The notes beneath the pieces were generated by a model that saw only the letters and a list, made by a program, of their open reading frames with translations, did not search any database and was not told the DNA's origin. Below are positions 33,613 to 34,123 of a stretch of DNA of 34,123 nt, in pieces; positions within the stretch are counted from its first letter, which is position 1, and every line of letters begins with the position of its first letter. Where the stretch lies: assembly GCF_003334385.1 (NCBI RefSeq), contig NZ_QOWN01000047.1. One strand, written 5' to 3'. The DNA is from Escherichia coli (GTDB lineage Bacteria; Pseudomonadota; Gammaproteobacteria; Enterobacterales; Enterobacteriaceae). The position numbers and the translations under genes were made by a program.

Positions 33613-34123
33613 ATGTGACTTAACCTCATGATTTAAAATTGTTAATAATAAACAATATCATCTTATACCAACACAGATACCAACACGAAAAATCACTGGT
33701 TTTCGGCATCGAACCAGGACAATCAGCTCCTGATTGAGATACCGAGCTCTGTTACTCGTCATCTTCCTCGACAGGCTTCATTGCATCAAGTAGTACTCGC
33801 ACCATCGCGATAGAACCAATCCGGATAAAAGCATCTTCTCCATCTATATCTGTTAACTGATATCGCTCACTTGATGCCGGATAATTGTGTCGATTTGCAG
33901 CAGTGAACTCTTTCGTACAGCCAGAATGCGGCGGATGCTGGTTGAGCAGATAACGTCCGTATTCTCGTTGACCACTTCCGGACGGTAGGCTGTGATATCA
34001 GACATAATCGATATTCCTTTTTGCAGATAAATGAAAATGCCAGCCCTGTTCAGGCTGGCGTCAGTGGAATGAAGTCTGGTGAGTGAGATGATGAGTGAGA
34101 CTCACCGGTTCTGGTGCTGAAGC

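Follow-up and report, generated by a model that had tools for sequence, protein, structure and literature searches.

Genes and features at the right edge of the window

The window, by which we mean the whole stretch of 34,123 nucleotides that was analysed, is, judged by comparison with related genomes, E. coli chromosome from the fim–nan region, and it reaches into the far (attR) end of an island that is integrated at leuX, a tRNA-Leu gene. The features at its right edge are listed below, each with the evidence that was used to place it.

33534..33612, minus strand: attR-like distal direct repeat of the leuX island (aligned locally with AR_0017 leuX and the 60 nt after it, and with K-12 leuX)
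33752..33880, minus strand: pseudogene of an HTH (XRE-type) regulator, C-terminal 42 codons and stop (RefSeq annotation, FDN-4 alignment)
33853..34005, minus strand: 50-aa ORF with an ATG start, reading MSDITAYRPEVVNENTDVICSTSIRRILAVRKSSLLQIDTIIRHQVSDIS
33877-34005, minus strand: N-terminus of DUF4942, codons 1-43 of the ORF (DNA and protein homology, PGAP)
34014..34019, minus strand: Shine-Dalgarno-like AAGGAA, 8 nt ahead of the start codon of the DUF4942 stump (direct sequence reading)
34029..34059, minus strand: terminator-like hairpin and U-tract AUUUUCAUUU (terminator scan, RNA fold, conservation)
34077-34088 and 34089-34100, no strand: 12-nt tandem duplication TGGTGAGTGAGA/TGATGAGTGAGA in the 3' untranslated region of DUF957, abutting the stop codon
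34078-34084 and 34100-34106, no strand: 7-bp inverted repeat GGTGAGT/ACTCACC (repeat scan)
34102..34123, minus strand: 3' end of the DUF957 gene, last six full codons ...LQHQNR (NCTC11121/AR_0017 alignment, WP_000839281.1 translation)

On the minus strand, which is the coding strand here, the order of the elements is the end of DUF957, the 12-nt duplication, the hairpin with its U-tract, and then the ribosome-binding site and ATG of DUF4942.

Thousands of complete E. coli chromosomes match the last 0.6-2 kb of the window. The best full-length matches to the window end are NCTC11121 and NCTC9966, and AR_0017 is among several genomes with 99.8-99.9% identity to the window up to base 34088 (99.8% for AR_0017 over 32100-34088). 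Across both of its small length polymorphisms, the window has no exact match in the collection of genomes.

The gene order in the related genomes is fimB, nanC, nanM, a truncated nanS, an HNH endonuclease and a fragment of a phosphorothioate-dependent restriction endonuclease, followed by two overlapping pseudogene fragments on the minus strand, an HTH regulator without its N-terminus and a DUF4942 protein without its C-terminus. Beyond the pseudogenes come DUF957, DUF5983, the CbtA toxin, the YeeU antitoxin, DUF987, a RadC/JAB protein, an antirestriction protein, DUF932 and Ag43. RefSeq labels the same DNA (98-99.9% identity) as pseudogene fragments of DUF4942 and HTH, then DUF957, DUF5983, CbtA and YeeU. 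Past base 34123 the DNA probably continues as it does in these near-identical genomes. A reading of the window made from its letters alone (hereafter the sequence-only reading) had raised a link to toxin-antitoxin systems at this edge. The link stands for the neighbourhood, as the cbtA/cbeA pair lies 0.7-1.3 kb past the window end in the related genomes, but the small ORF is not a component of it.

In CP4-like islands, the DUF957–DUF4942 module sits after the CbtA/CbeA toxin-antitoxin genes. It is present in 3488 of the 5426 complete E. coli genomes and usually in more than one copy (the DUF957-DUF4942 intergenic segment has a median of 2 and a maximum of 7 per genome). The DUF957 tail, hairpin and DUF4942 start of the window are 87-99% identical to the copies in those 3488 genomes.

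The DUF957 3' end, the duplication and the hairpin

DUF957 ends in the window with a TGA stop codon at 34102-34104; the complete gene has 65 aa, and its remainder lies past the window. In related islands it is the fourth gene of the string cbeA(yeeU)-cbtA(yeeV)-DUF5983(yeeW)-DUF957. For the DNA between DUF957 and DUF4942, we aligned the intergenic region of the window with 11 other copies from different chromosomal sites, some of which are beside tRNA-Ile or tRNA-Ser.

The sequence-only reading had described an imperfect palindrome with direct GAGTGAGA repeats next to the DUF957 end. Inverted and direct repeats are both present, but the direct repeat is a duplication of 12 nt and therefore longer than the 8-mer that was quoted. 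In coding orientation, the left arm of the inverted repeat (GGTGAGT) contains the stop codon of DUF957 and part of its last codon. There are two 12-nt units in six of the 12 aligned copies and one unit in the other six, which agrees with a gap between the DUF957 stop and the DUF4942 ATG of 96 versus 84 nt in annotated loci. Most of the single-unit copies can still form a stem of 5-7 bp from the inverted repeat, and the duplication only widens the loop. We take the duplication to be slippage-type length variation with no evident function.

The hairpin, a CCAGCC...GGCTGG stem that had been placed at about 34040-34058, lies at 34039-34059, within a base or two of that position, and begins 43 nt past the DUF957 stop codon. 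Its arms, GCCAGCC at 34039-34045 and GGCTGGC at 34053-34059, form 7 perfect pairs with 7 nt between them. Read on the minus strand, this is GCCAGCC-UGAACAG-GGCUGGC and then AUUUUCAUUU (34038-34029). The terminator scan counted 8 pairs (6 of them GC), a loop of 5 and the tail ATTTTCATTT, and this was the sole terminator-like site that it found in 33400-34123, one observed site versus 0.5 expected from shuffles. The hairpin is seen in both the MFE and the centroid fold, and the minus-strand RNA from 34006-34123 has a z-score of -1.95. Inverted repeats of 7 bp occur at chance frequency (eight pairs per 624 nt at the same settings), and it is because this one is conserved across the 12 paralogous copies that we place it above chance.

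Variable columns in the alignment of the 12 copies number 2 of 16 in the stem and 1 of 10 in the U-tract, compared with 3 of 7 in the loop and 7 of 16 and 10 of 22 in the flanking spacers. Both of the varying stem columns fall in the two outermost pairs, and the core CCAGCC/GGCTGG is invariant. Since the stem has no compensatory changes among the 12 copies, all of which are related E. coli paralogues, the evolutionary support for the hairpin comes down to conservation. We also considered a dispersed repeat of the REP/BIME type and rejected it, as the 34-kb window has no further exact copy of the hairpin pattern and all of the genome matches fall under DUF957/DUF4942 annotations.

A GC-rich stem-loop, an adjoining U-tract and a coding region upstream on the same strand make up the layout of an intrinsic terminator. 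We infer from this layout that the hairpin terminates transcription; with its U-tract, it would most likely end or attenuate transcription coming from the cbtA-DUF957 string. The stem of 7-8 GC-rich base pairs, the loop of 5-7 nt and the U-rich tract next to it are like those of known intrinsic terminators. Unlike typical ones, the U-tract is interrupted (AUUUUCAUUU) and the next ribosome-binding site is less than 20 nt away, so termination may be partial.

The other way to read the hairpin is as a stem that protects or processes a 3' end, or as part of a small RNA, that tunes DUF4942 relative to the cbtA-DUF957 string and is not a terminator. There are only 33 nt between the hairpin and the DUF4942 ATG, and a complete stop there would leave no room for a promoter of an intact DUF4942 gene, so the hairpin may terminate only in part, or may serve to stabilise RNA. 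The conservation of the stem would fit a non-terminator equally well. However, the conserved U-tract directly after the stem is the signature of intrinsic termination, and the small-RNA version has no family to refer to, with no Rfam match in 33300-34123 even at the permissive threshold of E<=1. We consider a non-terminator role unlikely and continue to read the hairpin as a terminator, possibly a leaky one.

The 50-aa reading frame and the deletion junction

A minus-strand reading frame of roughly 50 aa had been noticed at about 34005-33853; it is present at 33853..34005 with the 50 residues as quoted. What did not hold up is the idea that it is an independent small gene. PGAP calls it [quoted passage not shown] with coordinates that are exactly those of the ORF, and homology gives the same answer. 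Megablast homology to intact DUF4942 genes begins at query base 23, which is window position 33875, and extends to the window end. In CS6L, where an intact 281-aa DUF4942 gene follows DUF957, the homology likewise covers about 33875 to the window end and nothing further left. The ORF and residues 1-49 of the CS6L protein (WP_040234917.1, 281 aa) share 78% identity, and intact DUF4942 genes of 280-288 aa occupy the same place after DUF957 in other islands. The last 7 codons of the ORF and its stop are DNA of the HTH fragment read out of frame, and the tail HQVSDIS has a weak similarity to the intact QLAEIS.

The Pfam DUF4942 domain (PF13708) covers residues 87-275 of the intact 281-aa protein, and all of this is deleted in the window. 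An ORF that has lost the entire domain is a pseudogene stump and not a gene. Its sequence and position are homologous to those of DUF4942 members and the domain is gone, which makes it the remnant of a member and not a functional member. The stump is presumably without function.

Searches with the peptide agree with this. Pfam gave no match to the 50-aa ORF even at E<=10, and NCBIfam gave only a 12-bit chance match to a family whose cut-off is 783 bits. A homologue search of a database of 5.8 billion proteins returned nothing but short DUF4942 stumps and partial proteins with the label "restriction endonuclease subunit M". The peptide search yielded no intact relative; the intact DUF4942 genes were found via DNA matches in complete genomes. 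We rejected an identity with the type IV toxin-antitoxin proteins CbtA/CbeA (YeeV/YeeU) because the relatives of the ORF are DUF4942 stumps and it has no toxin-antitoxin match in NCBIfam or Pfam.

As for the parent families themselves, PADLOC and NCBIfam have no model that matches the intact DUF4942 and DUF957 proteins, and the only PHROGs hits of DUF4942 were families without an assigned function and part of a family that bears the label "DNA methyltransferase". The latter match is probably behind the old label "restriction endonuclease subunit M", and it does not establish a function. In the literature on DUF4942 and DUF957 we found gene tables only and no functional study.

The case for a genuine gene that encodes a small protein (a working micropeptide, or an N-terminal module that stands alone and was kept after the deletion) starts from the ATG and the good Shine-Dalgarno sequence, which the stump retains. 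AAAGG is kept in 12 of 12 aligned copies, and copy L012 has AAGGGA. In addition, the exact length of 50 aa and the same tail are found in many database clusters whose N-terminal parts are 72-98% identical, and because the 50-aa form occurs in many genomes the peptide may be expressed. However, the Pfam domain of the parent family is wholly absent, the tail is out-of-frame HTH DNA and PGAP calls the ORF a pseudogene. The database also holds a stump fused in frame to the HTH tail (P0016), one with a different tail (P0007) and one with an internally scrambled stretch (P0056), and variants of this kind point to decay and not to constraint. The recurrence of the 50-aa form in E. coli is accounted for by shared descent of one locus, because the HTH/junction segment is single-copy in 1714 genomes. 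On this evidence we think a small gene very improbable.

Two further ideas, taken jointly, have in our judgement only a very slim chance of being right. One is that the recurrent 50-aa stump has acquired a function of its own. The other is that the hairpin and the variable 12-nt repeat act as a copy-number switch that might set how much transcription or translation of the cbtA string reads through into DUF4942.

The reading as a stump leads to the other side of the junction. There, another minus-strand frame encodes PASSERYQLTDIDGEDAFIRIGSIAMVRVLLDAMKPVEEDDE followed by a stop codon, and RefSeq labels identical DNA [quoted passage not shown]. The intact regulator has 265 aa, and the fragment is 69% identical to residues 224-265 of the intact protein in FDN-4. 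The island end of FDN-4 is itself intact and runs cbtA-DUF4942-CopG-RelE-HTH(265 aa)-leuX-like repeat (attR). By this comparison, a deletion of ~2 kb fused codon 43 of DUF4942 to the last 42 codons of the HTH regulator, out of frame; the size is judged on FDN-4, which is an intact but divergent reference. The homologies to DUF4942 and to the HTH regulator overlap by ~6 nt (33875-33880), which may be microhomology. The junction thus falls at about 33875-33880. It can be placed with certainty only to about 33870-33882, and not to the base, because a close intact reference was not found.

One of the related loci (L015, NZ_AP029000.1) has the same junction between the DUF4942 and HTH fragments. 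Compared with window 33600-34100, it has ~95% identity left of the junction and ~75% right of it, and this mosaic suggests recombination among paralogous CP4-like modules. Its flank beyond the att repeat differs from that of the window.

The leuX repeat and the end of the island

The leuX remnant that the sequence-only reading had pointed out is real. At 33582-33612, the last 24 nt of the tRNA-Leu(CAA) gene leuX are repeated in degenerate form with an internal 8-nt duplication (GGTGCGAA twice), and 33534-33581 are a copy of the ~50-nt spacer downstream of leuX. ARAGORN found no tRNA anywhere in the window, which makes the leuX piece no more than a remnant. The number of 8-nt GGTGCGAA units at 33582-33597 is two in the window and in AR_0017, three in NCTC11121 and one in FDN-4, which makes it a second small slippage polymorphism, in a decayed site.

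AR_0017 has the same sequence ~92 kb from an intact leuX with an adjacent tyrosine integrase gene (tRNA-Leu at 4155642-4155726, integrase at 4155913-4157157). The intact tRNA-Leu gene adjoins ahr, and the ~92-kb interval holds Dpd genes, the fec operon, IS elements, Ag43 and the CbtA/CbeA module. A direct repeat of the 3' end of the tRNA gene is present at the distal boundary, as is the case for tRNA-associated islands. That the DNA to the right of the leuX remnant belongs to an island had also been proposed, and it is borne out by the comparison with AR_0017 and by the leuX 3'-end repeat, which make this DNA the terminal stretch of the island. At the leuX end in AR_0017 (L017/L018, NZ_CP024886.1 4155642-4179457), the island starts with the tyrosine integrase, and a complete dpdA-dpdK cluster and queD come next. 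We take this dpdA-dpdK cluster to be a 7-deazaguanine DNA-modification system.

Several smaller observations concern the two sides of the repeat. Between nanM and the leuX repeat (~31178-33102) lie nanS, which is called truncated in near-identical genomes, an HNH endonuclease gene that looks intact (216 aa, 32166-32816, minus strand) and, at about 32953-33102, a 150-nt fragment of a phosphorothioated-DNA-binding restriction endonuclease, of which there is an intact copy within the AR_0017 leuX island. An extra block of 26 nt at 33415-33440 also corresponds to leuX-int spacer. To the left of the leuX repeat the homology is to the spacer alone, and we found no coding homology to an integrase. 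The spacer copies at 33415-33440 and 33534-33581 suggest a second decayed and older element in tandem between the island and nanS. On the other side, between the att repeat and the HTH stop, is a perfect direct repeat (ATACCAACAC twice at 33665-33686, 12 nt start to start) that is kept in GU2018_CL13. These repeats could be arm-type sites for the integrase or an excision factor. In two other loci, CS6L (L003, 4112-5131) and O157:H7 (L010, 252-1331), it is the DUF4942 end, and not the integrase, that lies 100-150 nt from an intact tRNA-Ile / tRNA-Ser gene.

A protein-binding or recombination role at the island end (part of attR, or an excision-factor site) is most unlikely for the hairpin and palindrome. 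In its favour is their position, less than 500 nt from the repeat derived from leuX, where an integrase-bearing island has its very end. Against it, the sequence in common with the true leuX end is 33534-33612 only, and the hairpin (430-490 nt from the att repeat) and the repeat accompany the DUF957-DUF4942 region at other tRNA genes (tRNA-Ile, tRNA-Ser), where their distance from the island end differs. In addition, the number of 12-nt units varies freely, and the left arm of the palindrome is the stop and last codon of DUF957. The palindromes as an att core were rejected on the extent of the same leuX-end alignment.

With a probability of roughly 90%, then, we read the last ~270 bp of the window as the attR-side end of a CP4-like leuX island, made up of the tail of DUF957, a duplication, a hairpin and a DUF4942 stump. 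The sequence-only reading had itself said that it would be refuted if these elements proved to lie inside a larger annotated gene or to be an intergenic repeat of a common kind, and this is largely what we found: the ORF is a gene remnant, and the hairpin and repeat are a conserved intergenic segment.

In practical terms, the right boundary of the chromosomal backbone in the window is the attR-like leuX repeat at 33534-33612. The last 500 bp are decayed island-end DNA, and the small ORF is not to be listed as a gene. The features of the island end are ordinary and already known, as they are annotated in RefSeq genomes and the module is described in the literature. They have little importance beyond correct annotation. 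DUF957 and DUF4942 are very widespread in E. coli islands and their roles are a real gap, one that the truncated copy in the window cannot address.

Islands at leuX that carry Fec and Ag43 have been tabulated in a review (PMC7545054). In leuX islands such as PAI-S88-leuX, PAI-ED1a-leuX and KpLE2/PR-Y of K-12, a degenerate leuX 3'-end repeat bounds the nan-fim side, as it does in the window. The AR_0017 island resembles them: leuX and a tyrosine integrase gene stand at its start, and fec and Ag43 are part of its content. The window differs from leuX islands in that its repeat takes in part of the leuX-int spacer and that after it come the remains of a second element (the HNH gene and the restriction endonuclease fragment), which has no integrase left.

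For the module, the SRL pathogenicity island of Shigella provides a described counterpart, in which orf55/L0009 is DUF957 and orf56/L0010 is DUF4942 (PMC6980539). The CP4-like/933L-like islands of E. coli and Shigella (SRL orf52-orf56) have the order yeeU(cbeA)-yeeV(cbtA)-yeeW-L0009-L0010, and both this order and the intergenic DNA are as in the relatives of the window. What sets the window apart from these modules is that its DUF4942 gene breaks off after codon 43, where an HTH fragment is joined to it, and that the DUF957 stop codon is followed by two 12-nt units.
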